Below, one piece after another: positions 3,962 through 38,841 of a stretch of DNA of 55,727 bases. Origin of the DNA: a virus. A program made the position numbers and the translations under genes. Below the pieces are notes generated by a model. It worked only from the letters and a program-made list of their open reading frames with translations. It ran no database searches and had not been told where the DNA came from. Positions within the stretch are counted from its first letter, which is position 1. Every line of letters starts with the position of its first letter. The stretch lies in the UHGV virus genome UHGV-0036148, one strand, 5' to 3'.

Positions 3962-4120
3962 AATGCTCTCTCCTTTTAAGGTGATTTCTACGCATTTCAG
4001 CGCTGCCGGATTTTTAAAGAGCATTTTGCTTGCTTGAAGTATACAAAATGGATACGTGTAAACAAGACGAATAGCGCCATTATGTGATCCACATCACGCA
4101 ATGGCGCCATTTTGTAAATT

Positions 4121-10284: not shown

Positions 10285-10937
10285 TAACCGATCTCCCCGT
10301 TAAGCTCTTTTAAGCGAATGTCATAAACGTCTTTCGCTTTCTGTTGCTGTTCTGAATCTTTAGGCAGTAGTTTCCAGCACTTCCCGAAGATCTCGCGTAA
10401 CTTGTTAGCGTCCTGCGCTTTCGCTGCCGCATCACAGAAACGCGCTAACACCTCATCAGGATTTGGCGGCGCTTTCTGCTGCTGTGGTTTCTGATTAGGT
10501 TGTTGTTTTGGTGGGTTTTTCTGCTGGCGAGGCTGCTGCCCTGTCTGTTTAGCGTATGCGTCGCTATCTAAATCTTTCGCATCGTCAATACAGAACAAGC
10601 CATTCAAGCAATATTTGCGAGCATAAGAAGATGTCGCGCCAGTTAATTGACCAGCCGACATTCCTTTTTGTTCCTTCTCCTCGCGAGCGAAAGCAGTAGC
10701 CGTTATTTCGTCTTCTCCATCGCTCAATACCGCCGTAGCCTTAATGTAATAACGATCACCAATTAACACAACTTCATCATTAAGCGTTAATGTAATGCCT
10801 TCCAGTAAAGGCTTGACAGCCTCCAAAATATCCTCAGCCGACCTATAATTGTAACCCCCGTATGAGTTGCGCTGAGATTTTGGCGCCTTTAATTGTTGCT
10901 GTATTAGCCACAATTTTTTATATAAATCTTTCTTCAC
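10284..10937 (-). CDS. erf: Erf-family single-strand annealing protein
   Basis: N-terminal region resembles the Erf family (recalled); position beside ssb; GTG start at 10937. Confidence 0.6.
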   Translation of the reverse strand: MKKDLYKKLWLIQQQLKAPKSQRNSYGGYNYRSAEDILEAVKPLLEGITLTLNDEVVLIGDRYYIKATAVLSDGEDEITATAFAREEKEQKGMSAGQLTGATSSYARKYCLNGLFCIDDAKDLDSDAYAKQTGQQPRQQKNPPKQQPNQKPQQQKAPPNPDEVLARFCDAAAKAQDANKLREIFGKCWKLLPKDSEQQQKAKDVYDIRLKELNGEIG

Positions 10938-11379
10938 ATCGTTTCCCCTTTTTTAAAGGAAGAAGTACAGCGGCCTCATGAGTCCAGCCGCGACGCAATC
11001 TTGTATGTATAGTGTGCTCACATATACCGTATTTTTCAGAAAAATAATGTACCGTGTTTGTTTCCCCCTTCACTGTTAACATCATGGTTCTGCATGTATT
11101 GCGCATGTTTTCAGCGTGCGTAACCCATCGGCAATTATCAGGTGAATACCCCTTGTCGTTGTCAATCCTGTCTATTTCTAACCCTTCACGATAACCGTTA
11201 TTTAAAGCCCACTCGATAAACTTTGACGAATCATTCAACCATTCGTCACATATAGTTATATTTTTATCCTTATAGTGTTTATTTCGTGGATTCTTATCGC
11301 TTTCCCTGCATCTCGTTTTCATTCCCTTAAAAACGTCATAAAGTTTTGTATGCGTCATTCCATGTTTTGAATAACCCAT
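10918..11379 (-). CDS. HNH endonuclease
   Basis: IDRIDNDKGYSPDNCRWVTHAENMRN HNH-type motif; AAGGAGA SD. Confidence 0.6.
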   Translation of the reverse strand: MGYSKHGMTHTKLYDVFKGMKTRCRESDKNPRNKHYKDKNITICDEWLNDSSKFIEWALNNGYREGLEIDRIDNDKGYSPDNCRWVTHAENMRNTCRTMMLTVKGETNTVHYFSEKYGICEHTIHTRLRRGWTHEAAVLLPLKKGKRCEERFI

Positions 11380-11528
11380 TAACTAATCTCCTTCGCTGTT
11401 AACACTACATACAAGGCTTTATTCGCGGCGCTCCACATATCGGCATCATGAAGCACTTCCGCTACCGCCAGTTTGAATTGAAGCGCCTGAATAACCATAA
11501 TGTCACCTCAGAATGTTTACATTTTGTA

Positions 11529-11819
11529 TTAATGGTAGCGGACTTTATCCAGGGGTTTCTCCCCTAAATGGCGTGGTTGCGTTGCGTGGTAGTAGCTGCC
11601 GCTTTCATTTTCCGTATACCATTTTACTGATCCTTTGCGACGTTCTTTAATGCTATTTGGTTTGCATCTTTCCTCGTTTGCAAATCGAATAGCTTTATCC
11701 ACATTGTCTGTTTTATTAATTGCAGGTGATGATTTTCTTTCGTTTTCTCTTTTTATCCTTCTGCGTTCCCTGGCGTTCATTTTGCTATCACATTTTCCAT
11801 ACATAATTGTAACGCTCAT
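11529..11819 (-). CDS. putative N-like antiterminator (arginine-rich motif protein)
   Basis: NARERRRIKRENERK arginine-rich motif near N-terminus; first gene of the leftward operon. Confidence 0.3.
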   Translation of the reverse strand: MSVTIMYGKCDSKMNARERRRIKRENERKSSPAINKTDNVDKAIRFANEERCKPNSIKERRKGSVKWYTENESGSYYHATQPRHLGEKPLDKVRYH

Positions 11820-12160
11820 AATCTGATCTCCGTATATCCTTGATGAAACTTAATAAAAAATCATCTTCGTTAATTGCCGCACTTCCAGCGGCTGACCAGA
11901 TTTTTAATGAGCGGCTTAACATCTTTCAACTAATCCCGCAATCATCGCCGTTTCCGGTGTGACCTTGCTCACTCCAAGCAAGCTGACTCGTCGCCTTGCG
12001 TGCGGTTTCGTGGGGGATGTAACGCTTTAAACACCCCATGCGCCTTGTTATCAGTGCCGCTTTCGGTCCCCCATCGGGGAGTTACTCCACGGTTGACAAG
12101 GTGTTAAGCCTGATTTTTAAAGTGCCAGGAAGCTGCTTTTGTTACCTACGCCCTTCCTTT

Positions 12161-12196
12161 GATTCGCAATATACGCCCCGTAAAACACCGAGTCAA
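12161..12196 (-). promoter_or_regulatory. candidate leftward early promoter (PL-like)
   Basis: minus strand TTGACT - 17 bp - TATATT between cI terminator and N-like gene. Confidence 0.35.
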
Positions 12197-12289
12197 TCCA
12201 TTTTGTATACTTTTTTAAAATATTTTATATGCTATTGATATCTAAACAATAAATAGCGTTTTCTGTTTACGTTTTGGTGTTTTTTTGGG

Positions 12290-12320
12290 CGAAGAAAAGC
12301 CGCCATCCGGCGGCTAATGT
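12290..12320 (-). terminator. rho-independent terminator after repressor gene
   Basis: minus strand GCCGCCGGATGGCGGC hairpin followed by TTTTCTT. Confidence 0.5.
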
Positions 12321-12968
12321 TTATGGCAGGTTTACGATCTTCGCATCAACCACCACGCCCAATATTTTTGACTCTGGATTCATAGGGATCGGCGGATACA
12401 ACGGATTCAGTGAACGCAAAAGTTTTCGGCCTCCATCAATAATCAACTGTTTAAACGTAGGTATCTGCCCTTCCTCCAGTTGTGCTATAACAAGTTTTCC
12501 GTCAATAGCTGGCGCGTGCGGGTCAACGAGTATCATAGTCCCCGCCGGGATGCTTAACCCCTGCGGTGCGTTCATTGATTCACCTTTAGCAACCAGCCAA
12601 TAACTATCATCCGAACAAATAACGCTAGTAGCAACGTGTGGCAATGTTGATCGGTGTGTGCCTTCCATATTGTTTGCTACATCCTTCCAGTCAACAACCG
12701 GATAACTGCCTAAATCACGCGGTGGCGCTCCCGGCAACGTGTTAGAAACAGAATCATCAATGACCATTCCGTCATGAGTAACAGTGAATTGCCGACGCCC
12801 AAGCGCCCGCATGATACGCGCAATATCTTCAAGATTCGGCTCACGGCGACCGTTCAGCCAGTGAGAAAGGCCGCCTTTGGTTATCCCCATAAGATCAGCC
12901 AATGAATCCTGGCTCATGCCCTGCGCCCGCATGAGTTGTTTTGCTAAGTCATACCATTTTGTTTTCAT
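12321..12968 (-). CDS. cI: CI-like repressor (HTH_XRE + S24 LexA-like peptidase)
   Basis: N-terminal HTH (QDSLADLMGITKGGLSHWLNG), C-terminal S24 domain with AKGESM serine motif and K later. Confidence 0.8.
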   Translation of the reverse strand: MKTKWYDLAKQLMRAQGMSQDSLADLMGITKGGLSHWLNGRREPNLEDIARIMRALGRRQFTVTHDGMVIDDSVSNTLPGAPPRDLGSYPVVDWKDVANNMEGTHRSTLPHVATSVICSDDSYWLVAKGESMNAPQGLSIPAGTMILVDPHAPAIDGKLVIAQLEEGQIPTFKQLIIDGGRKLLRSLNPLYPPIPMNPESKILGVVVDAKIVNLP

Positions 12969-13273
12969 GTCGCTACCCTATAACCTAAAAAATTTTGATG
13001 CAAGTCACAAAACGTGTTTTTCAAGTCTTGACCCGTTAGCGCCATTCTGTAAACTTGCTGACAAGGTAAAGCCATACTTGCAATGATGCAAGGAAAAAGA
13101 TAAGGGAAAGCACAAAAAGGCCGACGCCTTAAGCTCTTTAAAAATCCGGTGTCGCTGCGAAGCGAAAAACAAATATCACGCAACGGCGGGATCTGTTGAG
13201 CGGTCAGTCACTGCTATCTAATGCTAATGGGATGCCCGCCCGCGCGTTCATTTTAACCATAGGAGAAAATACA

Positions 13274-13528
13274 ATGAGCATGAACATGATTAGCGAAGTA
13301 TGGAAAGTAAAACTTAACAGCCCGATTCAAAAACTGGTCTTAATGGCTCTGGCTGAAAAGGCAGATAACCGCCGTCACGTCATGGTATCACGACAAGAAA
13401 TTGCAAAAATGTGTGAACTTCCTGTTCATACGGTACATGATGCCTTCGCTGCGTTAATGCATAAAGGGTTTGTTTGTCGTCTTGATGCGTTCAGTGATGT
13501 CTATGTAGTGATGTTACCGGAGGAATGA
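13274..13528 (+). CDS. HTH DNA-binding protein, Cro-like candidate
   Basis: first gene of rightward operon divergent from repressor; AGGAG SD before ATG 13274; HTH-like segment. Confidence 0.45.
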   Translation: MSMNMISEVWKVKLNSPIQKLVLMALAEKADNRRHVMVSRQEIAKMCELPVHTVHDAFAALMHKGFVCRLDAFSDVYVVMLPEE

Positions 13529-13531
13529 TCT

Positions 13532-14578
13532 ATGAAGTGGTTTAAGCATGATAGCGATGCGAACCGCGATGAAAAACTTCAAAACGTTTTATTAGATTAT
13601 GGCCTGGAAGGGTACGGGCTTTATTGGTATTGCCTCGAACTAATAACTTATGACGTAGATCAGCACAATCTGACTTTTGACCTACGACATGACGCGAGAA
13701 TCATTGCGCGAAACGTCGGATCGACTGAAAAACGTATAGAAGAAATGATGAAATACTTCATCGAAATTGGTTTGTTTGAATGTTCTCAAGGCCACATAAC
13801 TTGTTTAAAGTTATTGAAAAGGCTGGACCAATCAATGACTTCTAAAAGCGCTTACAGGGCCGCCATAAACACAGCGAAGGAGCAATTAAAATTAGAAAAG
13901 TTAATCAATCCAACACAAAAAGGTCATGATAGGGTCATGACCGGGTCAGGAAAGGGTCATGAATTAGAATTAGAAGAAGAAAGAGAAAAAGATATATACA
14001 CTTCGTGTATTGTCGAAAATGAACAAAAAATGGTCAATCAGGATGGCGTAAACGAAGCGGCGTTGCGTTGCCTGGCCTTCTACAACGACAAGGCAGGATG
14101 CAAATGTCGTGATGCGAAGCCATTCATCGAACTACTGACAGAAACAAAAACACGTAAAGCGTATACGGAGGATGAGATCACATTAGTGATTGAGTGGGCT
14201 TTAACGCAATGGCGTAGCCGTGGTGGAACACCTAAGCCTATCAATATTTGCCGGGTAACTAAATTTGATGGGTATCTGACTGATGCTGAACAATGGCGCA
14301 AACTGTCAGCCACCGCAAACGCTGCCGACGTGGTGGAAGCATTTAACAGCACGTTTGACAGCCTGTTACCACCTGTCGAACTGGATCGGGATCTTGAGCG
14401 CAAGATCTATGCGTTCACTGACTACCTGAAAGACAAAAGCATTAACGGCTTTGTCGCCTACTTCGAAACGTTCAAAAACACGGCTTCAGATTTTTACTTC
14501 GGCGATGGCTTCACAGCGACACTTGATTTTCTGCTTAAACCAAAAACGCTACGCGATACACGCGCAGGCGCTCTTTGA
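13532..14578 (+). CDS. replication initiator / replisome organizer
   Basis: N-terminus MKWFKHDSDANRDEKLQNVLLDYGLEGYGLYWYCLE resembles the phage replisome-organizer N-terminal domain; contains iterons. Confidence 0.6.
   Translation: MKWFKHDSDANRDEKLQNVLLDYGLEGYGLYWYCLELITYDVDQHNLTFDLRHDARIIARNVGSTEKRIEEMMKYFIEIGLFECSQGHITCLKLLKRLDQSMTSKSAYRAAINTAKEQLKLEKLINPTQKGHDRVMTGSGKGHELELEEEREKDIYTSCIVENEQKMVNQDGVNEAALRCLAFYNDKAGCKCRDAKPFIELLTETKTRKAYTEDEITLVIEWALTQWRSRGGTPKPINICRVTKFDGYLTDAEQWRKLSATANAADVVEAFNSTFDSLLPPVELDRDLERKIYAFTDYLKDKSINGFVAYFETFKNTASDFYFGDGFTATLDFLLKPKTLRDTRAGAL
13915..14010. other. candidate origin of replication (iterons + AT-rich tract) inside initiator gene
   Basis: four 11-bp-spaced copies of GGTCATGA/GGTCAGGA followed by AT-rich attagaattagaagaagaaagagaaaaagatatata. 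Confidence 0.5.
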
Positions 14579-14712
14579 CCACCCACGATCCGCAAAAACC
14601 CAAAATAACCCGCAAAACAAGCTCGCCAGCGAGATAAATCGCATGTGGTGCTACACTTACTTACCTTTTTGCGATTAGCTCGTTATAGAGCGTTACAGAG
14701 AGGATTTCAAAA

Positions 14713-14814
14713 ATGGACGGTAAACACGTTTTCGCCCTGGCTTTTGCCATCGCCGCTGCAATAGCTGTTAACGTCGCCTTGTTCGGCGGTTTGTTCCTTC
14801 TCGTCAATCCATAA
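14713..14814 (+). CDS. mini membrane peptide (33 aa)
   Basis: MDGKHVFALAFAIAAAIAVNVALFGGLFLLVNP; GAGG SD. Confidence 0.3.
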   Translation: MDGKHVFALAFAIAAAIAVNVALFGGLFLLVNP

Positions 14815-14946
14815 CCTACCTACCAGTCTGTAAATCAAAAATTAGCCACCCGATAGCGCCTCTAGCGCAATAAGACACTGCAACCTGTGCAAACGGGTTA
14901 CGCGGTGGGATTTTTGCGTTGTAGAGCGTTTTACGGAGAAATTACA

Positions 14947-15684
14947 ATGTCTGAGTTGATGTGTTTTAATTTTGATGACAATAAAATCACTGCTGTAATT
15001 TATGACGGTAAACCTGCTTTTGTTGCGGTTGATGTGGCCCGTGCGCTGGGGTACAACGACGAGCATCAGGCCATTAAAAAACATTGTAAGTCATTGATTA
15101 AACTTGATTCCGTTAAAACAACGGAATTAGGTTTTGGGTTCAGACCAAAAGGCATAATTATAATTCGAGAGGCAGATATATACCGTCTTGTTATGAGATC
15201 AAAATTAGAATCAGCCGAGCGCTTCCAGGATTGGGTGTGCGAGGAGGTTCTTCCGGCTTTGCGTGAAAATGGGTGTTACGGTTGCAAACCTGCTTTGCCT
15301 GACTTCTCTAACCCTGCGGAAGCGGCGCGGGCGTGGGCTAATGAATACGAGCAAAAATTGTTAGTTAAGCAAGAAAATGAACGTCTTGCGCTTGAAAATA
15401 AAGTGCTGGCTCCGAAAGCGGCTGTATGTGACGCGATAGTCAAAAACGATATGCACCGAACGGCTTCAGAGGTAGCTAAACCGCTGGGAATGTCAGCCGT
15501 AAAATTAAACAGAAAACTTTCGGCGGTTGGTGTTTATGATCTTCGCTGTCGCCGCCGTGTATTCAGTCAGTGGTTTATTGATGAGGGCTACGGTGAAATG
15601 AGGGTAACTCACGATGGATATGAGCAGGCTGTATTCACTGCTAAAGGACAAGTATGGATCACTGAGCTTTTAACTTGCAACTAA
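14947..15684 (+). CDS. antirepressor (Bro-N + KilA-C/Ant domains)
   Basis: FNFDDNKITAVIYDGKPAFVAVDVARALGY Bro-N signature; C-terminal Ant-like region; GGAG SD. Confidence 0.75.
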   Translation: MSELMCFNFDDNKITAVIYDGKPAFVAVDVARALGYNDEHQAIKKHCKSLIKLDSVKTTELGFGFRPKGIIIIREADIYRLVMRSKLESAERFQDWVCEEVLPALRENGCYGCKPALPDFSNPAEAARAWANEYEQKLLVKQENERLALENKVLAPKAAVCDAIVKNDMHRTASEVAKPLGMSAVKLNRKLSAVGVYDLRCRRRVFSQWFIDEGYGEMRVTHDGYEQAVFTAKGQVWITELLTCN

Positions 15685-25200: not shown

Positions 25201-25577
25201 ATGTTGGTAAGAAGCTGATCCAACTGACCTTCGCCGCCAAAATCTTCCCACCACTCGACAGCGGAGGCGATTTCTGTTTCCTTGCCCTGGTAGTAACGCA
25301 GGGTTTCAGCTACGTCCTGAGCAAGCCCATCAACTGAGATCGAGTCAGATAGCAGGATGCTGAATTTTGTCCCGGCAGGGATGGCGGGGTTAGCCGCTGG
25401 CGTCACTGACAGTTCAGTGCCGCTTTTAATTTCTGTGATGGTAAAGATCTGTACCGGATTGCCAACAGCAATGAGCGTGCAACCTACACGAATAAGAGAA
25501 AGCGGCGCGGAAAAGTTTGTTCCCGTGCCTTTAACAGTATTGCCGTTAATGGCAACTGTTCCAGTTGTGTAAATCAT
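22257..25577 (-). CDS. tail fibre protein with C-terminal intramolecular chaperone (S74-like) domain
   Basis: 1106 aa; Ala/Lys/Thr low-complexity linker; C-terminal SDRDLKDNI...GYTYTLRENG...GVIAQE motif typical of autocleaving chaperone domains. Confidence 0.8.
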   Translation of the reverse strand: MIYTTGTVAINGNTVKGTGTNFSAPLSLIRVGCTLIAVGNPVQIFTITEIKSGTELSVTPAANPAIPAGTKFSILLSDSISVDGLAQDVAETLRYYQGKETEIASAVEWWEDFGGEGQLDQLLTNIRAETAKSTANAQKTGSDKNAAEASKTAAAKSATAAKTSETNAKASETAAKTSETKAKTSEDRAQEYLNQMGRLTSPMVQCAWPVETSGNGAYVKIAKLSDPKSSDCHLTLMVTNGGGYGLSYGNIDFIEISARGLNDTGEVTSENISKFLSIRRLGSPNLPNNSQMCYGLVKGDGYIEVWCYQRSYIKNTKVAVLAQTGNTELYIPEGFVKQADAPAGYIESPAARIYDQVNKPSKADLGLSNAMLTGAFGLGGSGIATNGKMSNTELLKALRDKGGHFWRGDRPTGSTATIYSHGSGIFSRCGDTWSAINIEYENARVKIFAGNDTGLNSGTYAINELYGTQNKPSKSDVGLGNVTNDAQVKKTGDTMTGDLTIKKGTPSVFLRAVDGIAALRFYNNDDSERGIVWAPANTDTLGEVRIRAKNAKGVTGGDLIVRHDGRVEARDLKVTYKISGATAEFANTSTSSDNTTVSIKGSQHTPLVLTRNNTIKNLSIGFKVDDVDQKYLGIAGDGDLYFGSYSDHTKNSKVITQAILDSGVTVGGKTTFSDLATFNAGMAGAIEPESISEVAVDLNNLTIKGTDKGSVKYYQCRTAGGGANITNKPDGVGGNFLLRVESIRKITDSDYTNLQTLVGTDTKQIYVRYCENGNWSAWSQIVVSGRNQDVTVRSLTSAAPSKLGGGRVDVLGSTSDYSAMNCTVRGVDSTGTNSAWSVGTSESTGKMLFLKNHRSSAQVLLNGDDGAVQLLSGTVKGATKQALTINKDEVNSTADLVIRKQAGTGSRFALLNSGNSELPVSIRVWGSSDRQNVFEVGTSAGYLFYAQKTSSGQMFDVSGNITCQTLHQSSDRDLKDNIQVIGEATESIRKMNGYTYTLRENGLPYAGVIAQEVMEALPEAVGSFTRYGNELQGPTVDGNELREETRYLNVDYAAVTGLLVQVARETDNRVTELEEENASLKANIAAMDERIAKLEALISQLTGSEE

Positions 25578-25620
25578 CTCGATGACTCCATTTTGTTAAT
25601 TAACGGAATAATTCTACCAT

Positions 25621-25642
25621 TTTGTGATCTGTGTTGCATTTT
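25621..25642. promoter_or_regulatory. degenerate CRP-like site upstream of lipoprotein gene
   Basis: tttTGTGAtctgtgTTGCAttt; left half-site perfect, right half degenerate. Confidence 0.25.
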
Positions 25643-25754
25643 CTGCTTACACAAAATGTATTTGTTGATTTATATCAATATACGAAATGTTGTTTTGTCG
25701 GATATTCAAGACACCGGATGAACCGGACGAGCTAACAAGAACGAGGATTAAAAA

Positions 25755-26003
25755 ATGAAAAACATGTTCAAAGTGGTTTTATTCTCTGCGGCTGTAGCTC
25801 TTACTGGTTGCGCTGTTGACAAAGAGGCCGCATTGCATAACCTGCCGAATAGCGGAGTAATTCCACAAGATGTTGTCTATGATGGTGAAGGTCATCTTGT
25901 CTATGACACTGAAAAACTGCCTTATACTGGTCAATGGTGTCATGAACTCGATCACAACATGCGCCGCATCGGTAGCCCTTCTAACTGTGTAGCTAACTAC
26001 TAA
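25755..26003 (+). CDS. small lipoprotein (moron)
   Basis: signal peptide with lipobox LTGC; AGGA SD; opposite strand between J and tail fibre; own terminator. Confidence 0.6.
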   Translation: MKNMFKVVLFSAAVALTGCAVDKEAALHNLPNSGVIPQDVVYDGEGHLVYDTEKLPYTGQWCHELDHNMRRIGSPSNCVANY

Positions 26004-32644: not shown

Positions 32645-33345
32645 CCCACCTTGCTGGATCCAGGGAAACAGGAAATTGGTAACGGATTAGGGCGCGGAAA
32701 ACGCAAACGGCAACCGCTTAGGCGGTGGCTGCATTTATCCAGCTTCGGATCACTGGTTAGCTCGTCTTTGTCAGTAGCTACGGGGCCGCCACTGTATCTG
32801 CAACCGTCGCCGCGATATTGCCACTGGCAAACGTCAGCGAGAATTGTGCGCCCGGGGATAACCGCCTTGTCAGCATCAATTGGCGTTGACAGTTCATATT
32901 GCACCTGGTCGGCTGTTTCTTCGCTCATCGCCTCAACGACGTAAAAAGATACAGCCTCAATAGATGGATCTGCATCTGGATTGCCGTTGGGGAAGTTAAC
33001 AGCGTCCAGGTATTTTACTTCCACCTGGCGGCGCGTAACCTTCATTCCTCGCAGGTCGTTAAAATCGTTGTTCATCCCGGTGATTAGCCCGCCAATGTTG
33101 GCTACTACCATTTGCGGGCGCGAGTAAACGCCTTCGTTTTTCATTTCGAAGCCAGTAGCCTCGATTGGGTAGCTGTTGTAAGTCACTCCCTTCCAGATAA
33201 CCGGGCCGTAATAGCCATTCGCGCCGGAATGGAAGCGGATAACCTCGCCACCCAGGGGCGTGAGGTCTAATTCAAACAAATCAATTACCGCGCCGACTCC
33301 GGCATCGACGGAATCAATAATCATTTCTGTAGGTATGCTGCGCAT
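32641..33345 (-). CDS. L: minor tail protein L
   Basis: YLDAVNFPNGNPDADP, LSTPIDADKAVIPGR, QWQYRGDGCRYSG, KCSHRLSGC parallel lambda L. Confidence 0.85.
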   Translation of the reverse strand: MRSIPTEMIIDSVDAGVGAVIDLFELDLTPLGGEVIRFHSGANGYYGPVIWKGVTYNSYPIEATGFEMKNEGVYSRPQMVVANIGGLITGMNNDFNDLRGMKVTRRQVEVKYLDAVNFPNGNPDADPSIEAVSFYVVEAMSEETADQVQYELSTPIDADKAVIPGRTILADVCQWQYRGDGCRYSGGPVATDKDELTSDPKLDKCSHRLSGCRLRFPRPNPLPISCFPGSSKVG

Positions 33346-33361
33346 TTTTTCACCTTGTCAT

Positions 33362-33383
33362 TTTGTGATCGCCGTCACGCTAA
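33362..33383. promoter_or_regulatory. degenerate CRP-like site in divergent region between L and plus-strand moron cassette
   Basis: tttTGTGAtcgccgTCACGc. Confidence 0.25.
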
Positions 33384-33473
33384 ATCATACCAAAACGGTT
33401 GATAGCGATTTTTACAATATGTATATTGTACTCAAAAGGAAGCATGGTTAACAAAATGGCGCGGAGGTGTGAG

Positions 33474-33629
33474 ATGACTGATAAGGTGTGGAGGTTGACG
33501 GTATTCCTGTCAGGCGGCAGGGAAATGACTGTGGCTCTGTATAAAGACGAAGGCGAGGCACTGACTGACGCGCTTTTACTTACTGAAGATGACCGCGTTT
33601 TGGGATACAGGATCGAACCTGCCAAATGA
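33474..33629 (+). CDS. hypothetical small protein (51 aa), moron cassette gene 1
   Basis: GGAGGTG SD; plus strand inside minus-strand tail module. Confidence 0.35.
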   Translation: MTDKVWRLTVFLSGGREMTVALYKDEGEALTDALLLTEDDRVLGYRIEPAK

Positions 33630-33642
33630 AAGGTTAACAAAA

Positions 33643-33993
33643 ATGCAAAAATACAGATTAGACGTGTGGACTGATAAATGTGAGTGGGAAAGCATAGGAC
33701 TATTTGACACATTCGAATCAGCGCGTAATGAAGGTTGTGAATTGCTCCGCTGTTGGTCTGGTGCTCGTGATTATTATGTTATTCCGGTGCAAGTGCCGGA
33801 TAAGGTGGAAGAGATGAACCCGAAAGATATTAACTTTAACGTCAATGTTGAATTTGCCGACTCTATGGATCAGGCTTGCCCTGGTGAAATACACGCAAAA
33901 GGTTTCCCGGCAGACAATCCGCAAGCAAAACGCGAATACGAAAAAGCGGCAAAAGATTTCTGTATCGACAATTTGTCTGCGTTCGATAAATAA
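33643..33993 (+). CDS. hypothetical protein (116 aa), moron cassette gene 2
   Basis: ORF following gene 1 on plus strand. Confidence 0.4.
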   Translation: MQKYRLDVWTDKCEWESIGLFDTFESARNEGCELLRCWSGARDYYVIPVQVPDKVEEMNPKDINFNVNVEFADSMDQACPGEIHAKGFPADNPQAKREYEKAAKDFCIDNLSAFDK

Positions 33994-34002
33994 GGCGGCA
34001 AC

Positions 34003-34251
34003 ATGGGGCGGCGCAATCACGGCGATTATGTGTACACGTTGAAACAGGCCGCCCGCCTCGTTGGTTATCATGAACACGAATTTATTGATTTGCTGATTGA
34101 GCGCGGGATACTGTACCAGGTCTGTTTAACGCTGTACCCGAAAGCGAAATACCTACAGGAAAAGTTATTCATCATCATGACGGATGAAAACCAGGTTAAC
34201 CATTCATTCGTCACTGATAAGGGCGTTAATTATCTGCGTGATAACTTATAG
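34003..34251 (+). CDS. hypothetical protein (82 aa), moron cassette gene 3
   Basis: AAGGCGG SD; plus strand. Confidence 0.4.
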   Translation: MGRRNHGDYVYTLKQAARLVGYHEHEFIDLLIERGILYQVCLTLYPKAKYLQEKLFIIMTDENQVNHSFVTDKGVNYLRDNL

Positions 34252-35691: not shown

Positions 35692-38600
35692 TTATTTGCG
35701 GCGAGGTTGCAACATTCCTCCAGGGCGTTGCGACTCCCTTGCCATCATTTTCATTGCTACGCGTTCCATTGTCTGCTCAAGCCTGCGGCTATCCTCGTCA
35801 CTAAATCCGTTTGTGGTCTGGACGGTGATGTTTACAGGCATATTGATACCGCCACCGCTGAAAAGATCGCGGCCAGGAATAACCCTGCCATTTTCACCAG
35901 GAATCATATACTGACGCCCGTTGCTCGTCTGGAATAGCTCCGGTATCCCGTGTTCCCCTACGCGATACAGGCTACCACCATTAACCGCACCGCCGTTATA
36001 GCGAGCGCCAGCCAGTCCAAGCGTTTTGGCGGCAGCTACGCCAGTAGTAAGCCCAGTAAGTCCAGTGGCCCCAGCGCCGCCCATCGTGGCAACGTTTGCC
36101 AGGTATGCAGGAGTAGCCCACGCTGATGATAACGCTGCCGCCTCTGCCAGTGCTTTGGTTGTTGCCATAGTTCTTGCTGTATCACCAATCAATTGCTGCT
36201 TGACCCACTCAGTACCCATTTGAACAATCGTACCAATCACAGAGGAAAGGATTGTATTGCCAATGTTAGCCAGCGCCTGTTGCCAGCTTTGAGTACCGTT
36301 AATCAGGCCGACAAGCGCGTTAGTTGCAGATCCGCCCATTGCATCAACAGCATCACCTAACAGTTGGTTGGTCAATGACTGCGCCTTATACCTCTCCCAC
36401 TGAAGTGATAGCATTTCCCTCTCGTGCGCTTTTTCTTGCTCCCTCATATATTGCTCTGTAGCGCCTAAATCTGTGAGCATTTGTTTGCGAACCGCCCATT
36501 CGTTCATCGCCTGCTGAATTGGGTCTAGCTGCCCGCGTAGTTGCAGCTCATTGTTTACCAGATTATCCCAACTAGATTGGCGTTTGCGTTGCTCTTCCGC
36601 CGCAACCAGCGCTTTCCATGCCGTAGTATATTGTTCGGTATTTATTTTTCCGCTTTTAAGTGCGGCGTTTAGCGCATCCTGATCCTCTTTTAATTTCCGT
36701 TGTGCTGCGGCTTCTACGTTGTATTTGTCTGCAACATTCTGGCCCCGCTTCTCAATCTCTTTGCGCAGGCGTTCAGCCTCTTTTAGACGTTTTTTCTCCT
36801 CGCTTTCGCCAGTTTTTTTCCCATGACTGGCCTTTCTTTCAGCTTCGGCGCGTTTCTGCTCGGTGTCGTATGCTTTGGTCATTGTAGCCATGTATTTTTC
36901 ATACGCTTCCCCGGTCAGGTTTGCTTTCTCAGCCTCACGCTTAAACCCATCAATCGCCTTTTCCCTGCTGGCTGTTTTGGAGTCGAGTTTTGCCAGTTCC
37001 AGGCGGCGGTTTGCCAGATCCATTAGTTCTTGTTGATCTGCGTTAAGTGCTGCTGAAGCGTGTTGCGTTGCTGCTGCTGCGCGTTCTGCTTCTGTGGTGA
37101 TTCTTCCGTATGCATCCGCCACCAACCCTAATGAAGTGGCAAGGGTCTTCATTAGCGGATCTGTATCCTGCATAAGCAAAATATATTTGCGCTGCATTTG
37201 ATTAAGGCGGTCGAGAATATCCTCACGCTGCGCCTCTTCCCTGGTCAGGCGGGCTGTGATTTCCTGATTAGCTTTCGATAGGTTGGCGTAAGCGCGTGAC
37301 CCCTCCTCTGCTTTCTCCAGTGCCTGTTTATTCAGCTCCAGCGCCTGCGTGTCCTGGTCAATCTGTTTGTTGAGACTGGCAACGTCTTCCTCTAACTGAC
37401 CCATTGATATTTGTAGTTTATCTGCGCCAGCCAGTTTAGCCGCCTTGCTCATTCGCTCCAGTGATTCGGTACTAACATCCACTGAATCAGCAAGGTTGCG
37501 GTTTGCCTCTGCCGTTTGATCTACGTGATCTACATATGCTGTCAACCCGTAAACAGCAAGCATTAACGCGCCAGGGATACCACCAATCGCGCCCAGAGTA
37601 GCGCTAAATGCTGTTTTTAGTAGTCCCGCATTAGTCGCCGCCGCAGTGTGGGCCGCAGCAAGGCGCTGCTCTGCCGCAGTAAGGGCGTTTGATGCCGCCG
37701 TGTTCTGTGCTTTGGCTACAGCCAATTCTTTCAGCGTCTGAACTTCGAATTTTGTTCCGGCGTTTGCCGCAGCATAAGCCTGCGCCTCTCTCAGCCTTGC
37801 CGCCGCCGCCGCTGCTGATTGCCGTGCTGATACCACCTGAGCGTTAGCTAGCGCCAATTCACTCTGAGCGGCCTGCCGTGCCGCTGCCGTTTGTGCCCTG
37901 GTTGCCTGAGCGTTAGTTAATGCCTCTGCTGTTGCAGCTACGAATTTATTTACCACTCTGCCACCCATCACAGTGGCAAGGCCAATAAATGCAGTAGCTA
38001 TTTCGTTAAGGTTTTCTGACAGGGTTACAACTGCCGAATTAAAAGCACCAATCCCGCCCATAATTGACGAATTGCTGCCGAAAAATTTAGCTGCGTTGTT
38101 GCCTGCAACAGTGAAAGCCTCCTGCATAGTTGGGGTGAGTTTAGAAAACTCAGCATCAACCTCCGCTTTCATTTCCTTAAGGGCTTTAATGATAGCTTCA
38201 CGGGTGATCTTCCCTTCTGCTGCCATCTTGCGCATTTCTGCCGACGATACGCCCAATGATTTAGCCAAACCCTCTGACAGCCTGGTAGCGTTTTCTGTAA
38301 CGGAGTTAAATTCATCGCCATTCAAAACACCTTTGGCGAGGGATTGACCCAACTGACGGATCCCGCCTTCTGCTTCAGCGGCAGAAGCGCCAGAAATGCG
38401 GAATGTTTTGTTAATGGTTTCAACCATATCACCAAGTGCTTGCGTCGATAAACCAGCGTCGCGCGTCGAGCGCTCTAATTTACCGTAAAGATCTGCCGTA
38501 GCATCAAGATCGCTTCGTGAATTTTGCGCGATCTGAAATACACGCTGATTAACGTCTGCCAGTGATTCACCAGCACGAACGCTATTGATTAGCCTGTTAT

Positions 38601-38841
38601 TCACCTCCTGCCAGGCGTTTGCATACTCAATGATTTTTTTTGCTGCCATTGCAGCACCCAGGGCACTGGCAATCGAGGATAGCTTTGACAGTGACTTACT
38701 TGCCTGAGTGGCGGCACTATCCACGCGCTCCAAATCCTTTTCCATTTTGCCAGTTGCGCGATCTACCTCGCGCTGAACAGTCAGAAGCTGACCCGTTTTT
38801 GCATCAACCTCGTAATAAATTGTGCCTAAATTTGTTGACAT
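35692..38841 (-). CDS. H: tail tape measure protein
   Basis: 1049 aa, Ala/Gln-rich coiled-coil, position between chaperone and M; GAGGT SD. Confidence 0.85.
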   Translation of the reverse strand: MSTNLGTIYYEVDAKTGQLLTVQREVDRATGKMEKDLERVDSAATQASKSLSKLSSIASALGAAMAAKKIIEYANAWQEVNNRLINSVRAGESLADVNQRVFQIAQNSRSDLDATADLYGKLERSTRDAGLSTQALGDMVETINKTFRISGASAAEAEGGIRQLGQSLAKGVLNGDEFNSVTENATRLSEGLAKSLGVSSAEMRKMAAEGKITREAIIKALKEMKAEVDAEFSKLTPTMQEAFTVAGNNAAKFFGSNSSIMGGIGAFNSAVVTLSENLNEIATAFIGLATVMGGRVVNKFVAATAEALTNAQATRAQTAAARQAAQSELALANAQVVSARQSAAAAAARLREAQAYAAANAGTKFEVQTLKELAVAKAQNTAASNALTAAEQRLAAAHTAAATNAGLLKTAFSATLGAIGGIPGALMLAVYGLTAYVDHVDQTAEANRNLADSVDVSTESLERMSKAAKLAGADKLQISMGQLEEDVASLNKQIDQDTQALELNKQALEKAEEGSRAYANLSKANQEITARLTREEAQREDILDRLNQMQRKYILLMQDTDPLMKTLATSLGLVADAYGRITTEAERAAAATQHASAALNADQQELMDLANRRLELAKLDSKTASREKAIDGFKREAEKANLTGEAYEKYMATMTKAYDTEQKRAEAERKASHGKKTGESEEKKRLKEAERLRKEIEKRGQNVADKYNVEAAAQRKLKEDQDALNAALKSGKINTEQYTTAWKALVAAEEQRKRQSSWDNLVNNELQLRGQLDPIQQAMNEWAVRKQMLTDLGATEQYMREQEKAHEREMLSLQWERYKAQSLTNQLLGDAVDAMGGSATNALVGLINGTQSWQQALANIGNTILSSVIGTIVQMGTEWVKQQLIGDTARTMATTKALAEAAALSSAWATPAYLANVATMGGAGATGLTGLTTGVAAAKTLGLAGARYNGGAVNGGSLYRVGEHGIPELFQTSNGRQYMIPGENGRVIPGRDLFSGGGINMPVNITVQTTNGFSDEDSRRLEQTMERVAMKMMARESQRPGGMLQPRRK

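Follow-up and report, generated by a model that had tools for sequence, protein, structure and literature searches.

Thirteen-base-pair dyads as likely repressor operators in the immunity region of an mEpimmI-group coliphage

Genes of the immunity region

The viral genome UHGV-0036148, a stretch of 55,727 nucleotides (nt) that was analysed at its full length and is called the window below, contains an immunity region in which a cI-type repressor gene is flanked by two predicted early promoters, PL and PR, and in which 13-base-pair (bp) dyads of the form ATACR-N3-YGTAW are the likeliest sites of repressor binding. The 2.1 kilobases (kb) at this locus are 92-96% identical to the coliphages mEp010, mEp515, and mEp021, and of 5,426 complete E. 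coli genomes, 35 carry the region as a prophage; judged by its sequence, the window represents a coliphage or prophage of the mEpimmI group. This group was introduced in 2025 as a new Nus-dependent, non-lambdoid temperate family prevalent in the gut (Negrete-Mendez et al. 2025, PMC11893012). As reported in section 3.3 of that paper, the cloned repressor of mEp021, Rep021, stops infection by six phages of the group, with mEp013 and mEp044 among those excluded. The same authors suggest that Rep021 perhaps recognises operator sequences unlike those of lambda CI, naming no operators or promoters, and report the N-like protein Gp17 of mEp021 as an experimentally characterised antiterminator, said to act on three nut sites with reference to Valencia-Toxqui et al. 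2023. Operators of mEpimmI phages are not described in the accessible literature, which excludes Valencia-Toxqui et al. 2023, where promoter maps may be given. Likewise, the dyads proposed here and their dispersal are absent from the accessible text of PMC11893012, and a full-text search with six operator 13-mers returned unrelated papers only.

The Rep021 orthologue of the window is encoded on the minus strand (12321-12968) and comprises 215 amino acids (aa) with HTH_3 and Peptidase_S24 domains, its closest solved relative being lambda cI (3BDN, E 2.6e-18). In mEp021 the repressor (MH706966.1, 11218-11814) is annotated as a protein of 198 aa starting from an internal Met; alignment of the family, in which MKTKW… is conserved, together with the HTH_3 domain boundaries indicates that the 215-aa form is the real one. 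The gene is followed by a terminator hairpin on the minus strand (12298..12315; AGCCGCC-GGAT-GGCGGCT, then TTTTCTT), which is annotated as a terminator in mEp021 and mEp515. An Rfam scan of 10500-15000 gave a single sub-threshold small RNA match, on this terminator, and nothing further, and a repressor search of genome contigs returned one irrelevant locus.

Beyond the terminator, the minus-strand gene at 11529..11819 encodes the N-like antiterminator, the Gp17 orthologue (PHROG 271, E 4.7e-13; N_peptide Pfam match sub-threshold). A reading of the DNA made from the letters alone (the sequence-only reading) had recognised a lambda-like repressor gene with an N-like gene on one side and rightward early genes on the other, and the domain and PHROG 271 matches bear this out. 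Its estimate of about 300 bp for the non-coding stretch to the right of cI also agrees with the 305 bp found (12969-13273), whereas its label of this stretch as cI-cro had to be given up. The first gene after PR, on the plus strand (13274..13528), encodes an 84-aa winged-helix protein matching PHROG 4617 (E 6.4e-20) and several further O-like families, with sub-threshold Pfam matches of the MarR/TrmB type; by these matches it is not cro but the N-terminal module of O-like replication initiators, standing alone. The mEpimmI group has no cro adjoining cI, whereas in the sister group discussed below a true cro, encoding an HTH_3 protein of 75 aa (L051 2649-2876), is found at a distance of 124 bp from cI.

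Early promoters

Conservation was assessed in 43 relatives on the PL side and in 39 on the PR side, and the counts below refer to these. PL (12168..12196, minus strand) consists of a -35 hexamer TTGACT (12196..12191), a 17-nt spacer, and a -10 hexamer TATATT (12173..12168). It had been singled out from the letters alone as a strong minus-strand promoter, rightly so: TTGACT-17-TATATT agrees with the consensus at 10 of 12 positions, outranks every other promoter-like site in 11400-13700, and is conserved, the -35 being kept in 42 of 43 relatives and the -10 in all 43. The layout is repeated in the prophage groups L051 and L058. On this sequence evidence, PL is a real, strong, and conserved promoter of the sigma-70 type with a predicted start at about 12161.

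On the other side of the repressor gene, PR (13028..13055, plus strand) combines a -35 TTGACC, which is TTGATC in most relatives, with a 16-nt spacer and a -10 TAAACT. It agrees with 9 of 12 consensus positions, its start would be expected at about 13062, and its -10 is invariant (39/39); L051 has TTGAAC-16-TAAACT at the same place. Between PR and the repressor gene lies a putative promoter for cI, PRM (12977..13003, minus strand), with a -35 TTGCAT (13003..12998), a 15-nt spacer, and a -10 TATAGG (12982..12977) located 8 nt before the cI ATG. At this place L051 carries TTGAAT-15-TATAGG, with an unrelated spacer sequence.

Operator dyads in repressor relatives and in the window

A protein search identified repressor homologues of 36-55% identity, and the DNA around several of them was then read. 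Four prophage groups (L057, L058, L061, and L049), whose repressors are 36-50% identical, have a classical divergent cro-cI pair, and in each of them the short region separating the two genes contains three 13-bp ATACR-N3-YGTAT dyads, whose centres are 33 and 25-27 bp apart. Two further dyads, 25 bp apart, are found downstream of the repressor gene in L057 and L058; in L058 a promoter was read at this place, one dyad abutting its -35 and the second overlapping its -10. The repressor of the sister group P0008 (L051-L056 and L067) is 55% identical, and its recognition helix, ITKGGLSHWLNGRREP, is exactly that of the window. Around PL and PR of this sister group the surrounding sequence has diverged, and the dyads are retained at the same promoter positions.

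An operator matrix was trained only on L057, L058, L061, and L049, and its full and half-site versions were used to rank 55,715 positions of the window. On the left side, the proposed O_L1 (ATACGCCCCGTAA, 12171..12183) covers the first 3 nt of the PL -10 together with part of the spacer and scores 11.4 bits with the half-site matrix (rank 12), while the proposed O_L2 (ATCCATTTTGTAT, 12196..12208) has one base in common with the PL -35 and scores 14.3 bits with the full matrix (rank 8). The two flank PL, with their centres exactly 25 bp apart. On the right side, the proposed O_R2 (TCACAAAACGTGT, 13005..13017) is separated by 10 nt from the PR -35 downstream of it and by 1 nt from the -35 of the putative PRM; it scores 5-8 bits (rank 24-64), with 7.6 bits and rank 24 for the full matrix. 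The proposed O_R1 (CGCCATTCTGTAA, 13040..13052), with its centre 35 bp from that of O_R2, lies over the first 3 nt of the PR -10 and reaches 0.5-1.0 bits (rank 210-373). At PL, PR, a third early-type promoter of the window (4065..4038), and the corresponding promoters of L051 and L058, the last 3 nt of the dyad are the first 3 nt of the -10.

Changes at the four sites among the 39-43 relatives fall within the consensus classes, namely C/T at Y, A/G at R, and CCA/ACA, while the spacers next to the dyads (13034-13039 and 12184-12190) vary freely and take 8 forms each. All changes in O_L1 are within the consensus. O_L2 has ATCCA in 37 relatives and ACACA in 5, and the same position is occupied in L051 and L058. 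For O_R2 the only variants are TCACAAAATGTAT, …TGTAA, and …CGTAT, mEp021 having ATACGTTTTGTGA. O_R1 is better in most relatives, where it reads TTCCATTTTGTAA, and its core CA-N3-TGTAA is invariant while the nearby spacer varies freely. Finally, O_R2 is homologous in position to site 'd' of L051 and O_R1 to its site 'b'. A 15-mer, CCATTYTGTAWACTT, that is common to the PL and PR regions was reread, after the relatives had been viewed, as half of a 13-bp dyad plus promoter flank.

A lambda-type layout of the immunity region

Taken together, the matrix hits, the conservation pattern, and the positional homology across groups argue for an immunity region of lambda-type layout in which ATACR-N3-YGTAW dyads are the likeliest repressor sites, and we would put the probability of this at roughly 0.7; binding of the repressor is what we infer from that evidence. 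In such an arrangement, PL (12196..12168) would drive the N-like antiterminator and the leftward early genes and PR (13028-13055) the replication genes, with a nut site after each early promoter. Repressor dimers at O_L1, O_L2, and O_R1 would occlude RNA polymerase, and a dimer at O_R2, one base from the -35-like hexamer of PRM, could stimulate cI transcription as lambda OR2 does. TTGCAT-15-TATAGG is accordingly treated here as a candidate PRM that may be stimulated by repressor at O_R2 and may give rise to a near-leaderless mRNA.

Several observations weigh against this interpretation. In the window, O_R1 is a poor match to the matrix and O_R2 only an intermediate one, so the assignment on the PR side leans mainly on positional homology and conservation. 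Just two sites per side were found, and no equivalent of O_R3 among them. The putative PRM is weak by consensus, with a poor -10 and a short spacer of 15 nt. In addition, conserved CTTG…CAAG dyads just past PR could be regulatory sites, and ATACR-N3-YGTAW dyads also occur at many other intergenic places, so that their ligand could in principle be a protein other than CI.

Alternative explanations

The best-surviving alternative concerns the leader of the PL transcript. The sequence-only reading had described an element, TGACAAGGT…AAGCC, on both sides of cI, and its left copy may act as RNA or mark an insertion, either by closing a long stem in the PL leader that brings the 5' end beside boxA or by marking the ends of a small inserted element. 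This left copy (12093..12110, plus strand) provides the right-hand arm of a 13-nt inverted repeat with 92% complementarity (11913-11925 / 12098-12110; about 17 of 19 with one indel). The repeat brackets a part of the PL leader, an accessory segment about 215 bp long (11924..12136, minus strand; divergent edges at about 11912-12154), which is absent from 9 of 43 relatives and contains a 37-aa open reading frame (11926-12039) with no Pfam or PHROG match. The arms lie near both ends of an indel segment, the left one adjoins boxA, and when the leader is folded, the structure of minimum free energy pairs precisely the two arms. On the other hand, the whole PL leader does not fold significantly more stably than shuffled sequences (z = -1.72; 5 of 100 shuffles equal), and the arms, being invariant in all carriers, show no covariation. 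Nor does the segment occur anywhere else in the 5,426 E. coli genomes; it is restricted to this prophage context and therefore shows no sign of mobility. By our estimate, an inverted repeat of such quality would be expected by chance about 0.08 times per 500 bp. An RNA or insertion role is on balance unlikely, though it deserves more credence than the readings that follow; it concerns just the left copy and could hold alongside a role of the dyads as operators. Natural short variants already show that the accessory segment is dispensable. About a fifth of the relatives are without it and have in its place a better boxA, GCTCTTTAA.

The CTTG…CAAG dyads offer another explanation, in which they are the real control sites of PR, for CI or for a Cro substitute, and the right copy of the TGACAAGGT…AAGCC element is part of one of them. 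Two such dyads lie at 13054..13092 on the plus strand, CTTGCTGACAAG (13054-13065) and CTTGC-N6-GCAAG (13077-13092); the latter is the inverted repeat CTTGCAatgaTGCAAG of the sequence-only reading, which had its letters right and its position off by one (13076-13091). The density of CAAG/CTTG reaches its maximum for the whole window at 13001-13100 (7 per 100 bp vs a mean of 0.67), the arms are conserved in the 39 relatives with variable centres, and the dyads lie at the position that the third operator and cro take in the sister group. However, the spacing of the arms is inconsistent (N4 vs N8), no CAAG/CTTG is found around PL, and the sister group, whose recognition helix is identical, has none of these dyads. 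Furthermore, chance alone would by our estimate give about 0.8 palindromes of the 6+6 type in 306 bp, and compensatory changes that would suggest an RNA hairpin were not seen in the 39 relatives. Control of PR by these dyads is therefore improbable, and they may serve another regulator or the RNA. CAAG/CTTG half-sites were likewise rejected as the main operator, given inconsistent spacing (N1, N4, and N8), their absence at PL, and their absence from the sister group sharing the helix.

The ATACR-N3-YGTAW dyads might also be real and yet serve a protein other than CI, such as a Cro-like or late regulator of the phage or a host factor. This would fit with their occurrence at a dozen or more intergenic places distant from the immunity region and with the weakness of the window's own PR copy. 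It fits poorly with the four independent prophage groups, in which the cro-cI intergenic region is filled by triplets at fixed spacing and PL is flanked by dyads, the classical position of operators, and with the way the dyads go together with this repressor lineage in groups that have little else in common. A ligand other than CI is accordingly less probable still than control by the CTTG…CAAG dyads.

Least credible is the proposal of the sequence-only reading that TGACAAGGT(N)AAGCC at 12093 and 13059 represents same-orientation repressor operators flanking cI, a reading that the following comparison leaves with hardly any probability.

The repeated TGACAAGGT…AAGCC motif

Both copies of the motif exist. 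The left one, ttgacaaggtgttaagcc, is present at 12093-12110 as described, and the right one, tgacaaggtaaagcc, has the sequence given for it and is located at 13059-13073 rather than 13058-13072. The gapped pattern is found at only these two places in the window, the right copy adjoins PR, and its core GACAAGGTAA is invariant. The resemblance is nevertheless at chance level, as 91% of dinucleotide-shuffled intergenic pairs match or beat the real local alignment, and a longest shared word of at least 9 is found in about 80% of shuffles. The gapped pattern itself (a 9-mer followed by a 5-mer within 0-4 nt) is met in 4.5% of shuffled pairs and in 8% of random pairs of real segments from the window. 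The best true likeness of the two regions flanking cI is instead inverted and involves the nut sites (about 11881-11912 vs about 13112-13142), with 1.2% of shuffles reaching its score.

The motif also lacks the properties of an operator. The sequence TGACAAGGTAAAGCC has no self-complementary halves, and the family operator matrix gives -7.1 bits for the left copy and -12.7 bits for the right. Neither copy overlaps promoter hexamers. The left copy is 58-103 bp downstream of those of PL and, with the PL start expected near 12161, at about +52 to +69 of the leader, that is, 50-70 nt past the start; the right copy (plus strand) begins 4 nt past the PR -10 and would therefore cover the PR start and the initial transcribed sequence (about -3 to +12).

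Comparison with related phages, which had been proposed as a check, went against the pair as well. Of 43 relatives, 9 do not have the left copy. Two of these, mEp013 and mEp044, are without the segment and are still excluded by cloned Rep021 (PMC11893012), so the copy is dispensable for immunity. Of 39 relatives, 34 have changes in the right copy, 29 of them reading AGACAAGGTAAGGCC, with 2 of 15 positions different, and only 5 agree with the window. In the sister group, which shares the recognition helix, PR and PL are without any such motif. By sequence, the TGACAAGGT…AAGCC repeat is a chance resemblance and not an operator; the expectation of operators to either side of cI holds, the particular element put forward does not. 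Two promoters that might be read in or beside the copies were also rejected: TTGACA-17-TTTAAA on the plus strand (12093-12121) has a -10 without the key A2 and T6 and was unreported by the promoter scan, and CTGACA-18-AATGAT (13058-13087) is not conserved, most relatives having CAGACA…AAAGAC.

nut sites

A nut site is found in the leader of each early promoter. In the PL leader, upstream of the N-like gene, the site named nutR1 (11876..11912, minus strand) comprises boxA GCTCATTAA (11912..11904) and boxB GCCGC-UGGAAGU-GCGGC (11892..11876). In the PR leader (13133..13165, plus strand), boxA is GCTCTTTAA (13133-13141) and boxB is TCGCT-GCGA-AGCGA (13152-13165); this site is apparently the nutL of the mEp021 papers. 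The placement of the nut sites agrees with section 3.5 of PMC11893012. Between the PR nut site and the first gene, 13178-13260 is highly conserved and non-coding, and a long-range GC-rich inverted repeat, 13178-13190 / 13235-13247, is followed there by TTCATTTT. This stretch may be a terminator on which N-type antitermination acts.

Dispersed operator-like dyads

Operator-like 13-mers of the ATACR-N3-YGTAT type are spread over the intergenic DNA of the window, starting at positions 4041, 7648 and 7672, 11517, 25649 and 25680, 33412, 35046 and 35071, 38853, 38882 and 38907, and 54284. With the family matrix, 9 sites of the window score at least 14 bits vs 0.5 expected, and with the half-site matrix, 9 of 14 sites scoring at least 9 bits are intergenic, though only about 10% of the window is (binomial p = 1.6e-6). 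The core 8-mer ACAAAATG occurs 24 times vs 1.7 expected. Copies are found at comparable positions in mEp021 and in L067 of the sister group, the latter with 12 core copies in 20.6 kb vs 0.6 expected.

Dyad copies are located just after the N-like gene and on the third early-type promoter, which has its own nut site. This promoter (4065..4038, minus strand) reads TTGTTT-16-TATACT, with the dyad 4041-4053 over its -10, and a nut-like boxA/boxB, apparently the nutR2 of the mEp021 papers, lies just downstream at about 3990-4022. A dyad triplet with spacings of 29 and 25 bp lies upstream of the gene at 35692-38841, which is taken to be the tape-measure gene by synteny with mEp021.

From these positions it could tentatively be speculated that the CI-type repressor of mEpimmI phages and of the sister group controls some 12-24 dyads genome-wide, with the core CA-AAA-TG, beyond those at PL and PR; such a network has rather less than an even chance of being real. 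Its targets would include the third nut-linked promoter, the site after the N-like gene, and the heads of reverse accessory cassettes in the tail region, among them sites upstream of the Lpp exclusion gene and of the tape-measure gene. If true, this would be a silencing network like that of stoperators or of phiC31 in a Nus-dependent coliphage with a repressor of the lambda-CI type and no cro beside cI.

Comparison with known switches

In general, the region resembles that of lambda. A CI-homologous repressor gene lies between divergent early promoters, the proposed operators are positioned over -10 and -35 hexamers, one of them stands beside the -35 of the weak putative cI promoter, 8 nt separate the -10 of that promoter from the ATG, and an N-like antiterminator is accompanied by boxA/boxB nut sites downstream of both promoters. 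However, lambda operators are 17-bp sites, whereas the dyads proposed here are of 13 bp (ATACR-N3-YGTAW), and lambda has three sites per side, whereas two were found here, at centre spacings of 25 and 35 bp. The window also differs from lambda in having no cro, cII, or rex genes, a nut site directly after PR, and a third early promoter with its own nut site (4065..4038). The core finding is ordinary lambda-type switch logic in a recently described phage group. As a member of that group, the window has genes and sites matching Rep021, Gp17, and the three nut sites of PMC11893012.

The plan of the dyads is also like that of other repressor sites, and their half-sites differ in sequence and length from those of 434 and P22. 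Operators of these two phages are short dyads with contacted half-sites of 4-5 bp around a variable, uncontacted centre, and several of them overlap early promoters. The 434 operator is a 14-bp ACAA-N6-TTGT, and the P22 operators are of 18 bp. Dispersed repressor sites in short intergenic regions are represented by the stoperators of mycobacteriophages L5 and Bxb1 and by the conserved inverted repeats of Streptomyces phage phiC31. The window shares with these the many operator-like copies in short intergenic regions genome-wide. Stoperators, however, are asymmetric 13-mers, whereas dyads and a lambda-CI/S24 repressor are predicted here, and several copies here lie on predicted promoters rather than within operons.

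With the proposed operators and promoters placed, footprinting, reporter constructs, and the making of virulent or operator mutants can be aimed at defined positions, and further pursuit of the chance motif can be spared. The dispersed sites are the one feature that might repay experiments. If confirmed, the missing cro beside cI and the many extra operator-like sites would bear on how lambda-type switches vary.

Minor observations

In the tail-gene region, operator-like dyads are found at the heads of accessory cassettes that run in reverse orientation (25570-25760 and 33340-33600). The genes of these cassettes include a lipoprotein gene with a PHROG match (25755-26003) and two others (33589-33993 and 34003-34251). 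A strong plus-strand promoter agreeing with 10 of 12 consensus positions, TTGATA-17-TATATT (33399-33427), is overlapped by the dyad 33412-33424. Near the third early promoter, a second copy of CCATTTTGTAA (4105-4117) comes after a strong hairpin at about 4074-4107. Finally, the first six codons of cI (12951-12968), ATGAAAACAAAATGGTAT, encode MKTKWY, which is conserved across the repressor family, and the opposite strand of this stretch reads TACCATTTTGTTT, an operator-like sequence on the cI start codon.

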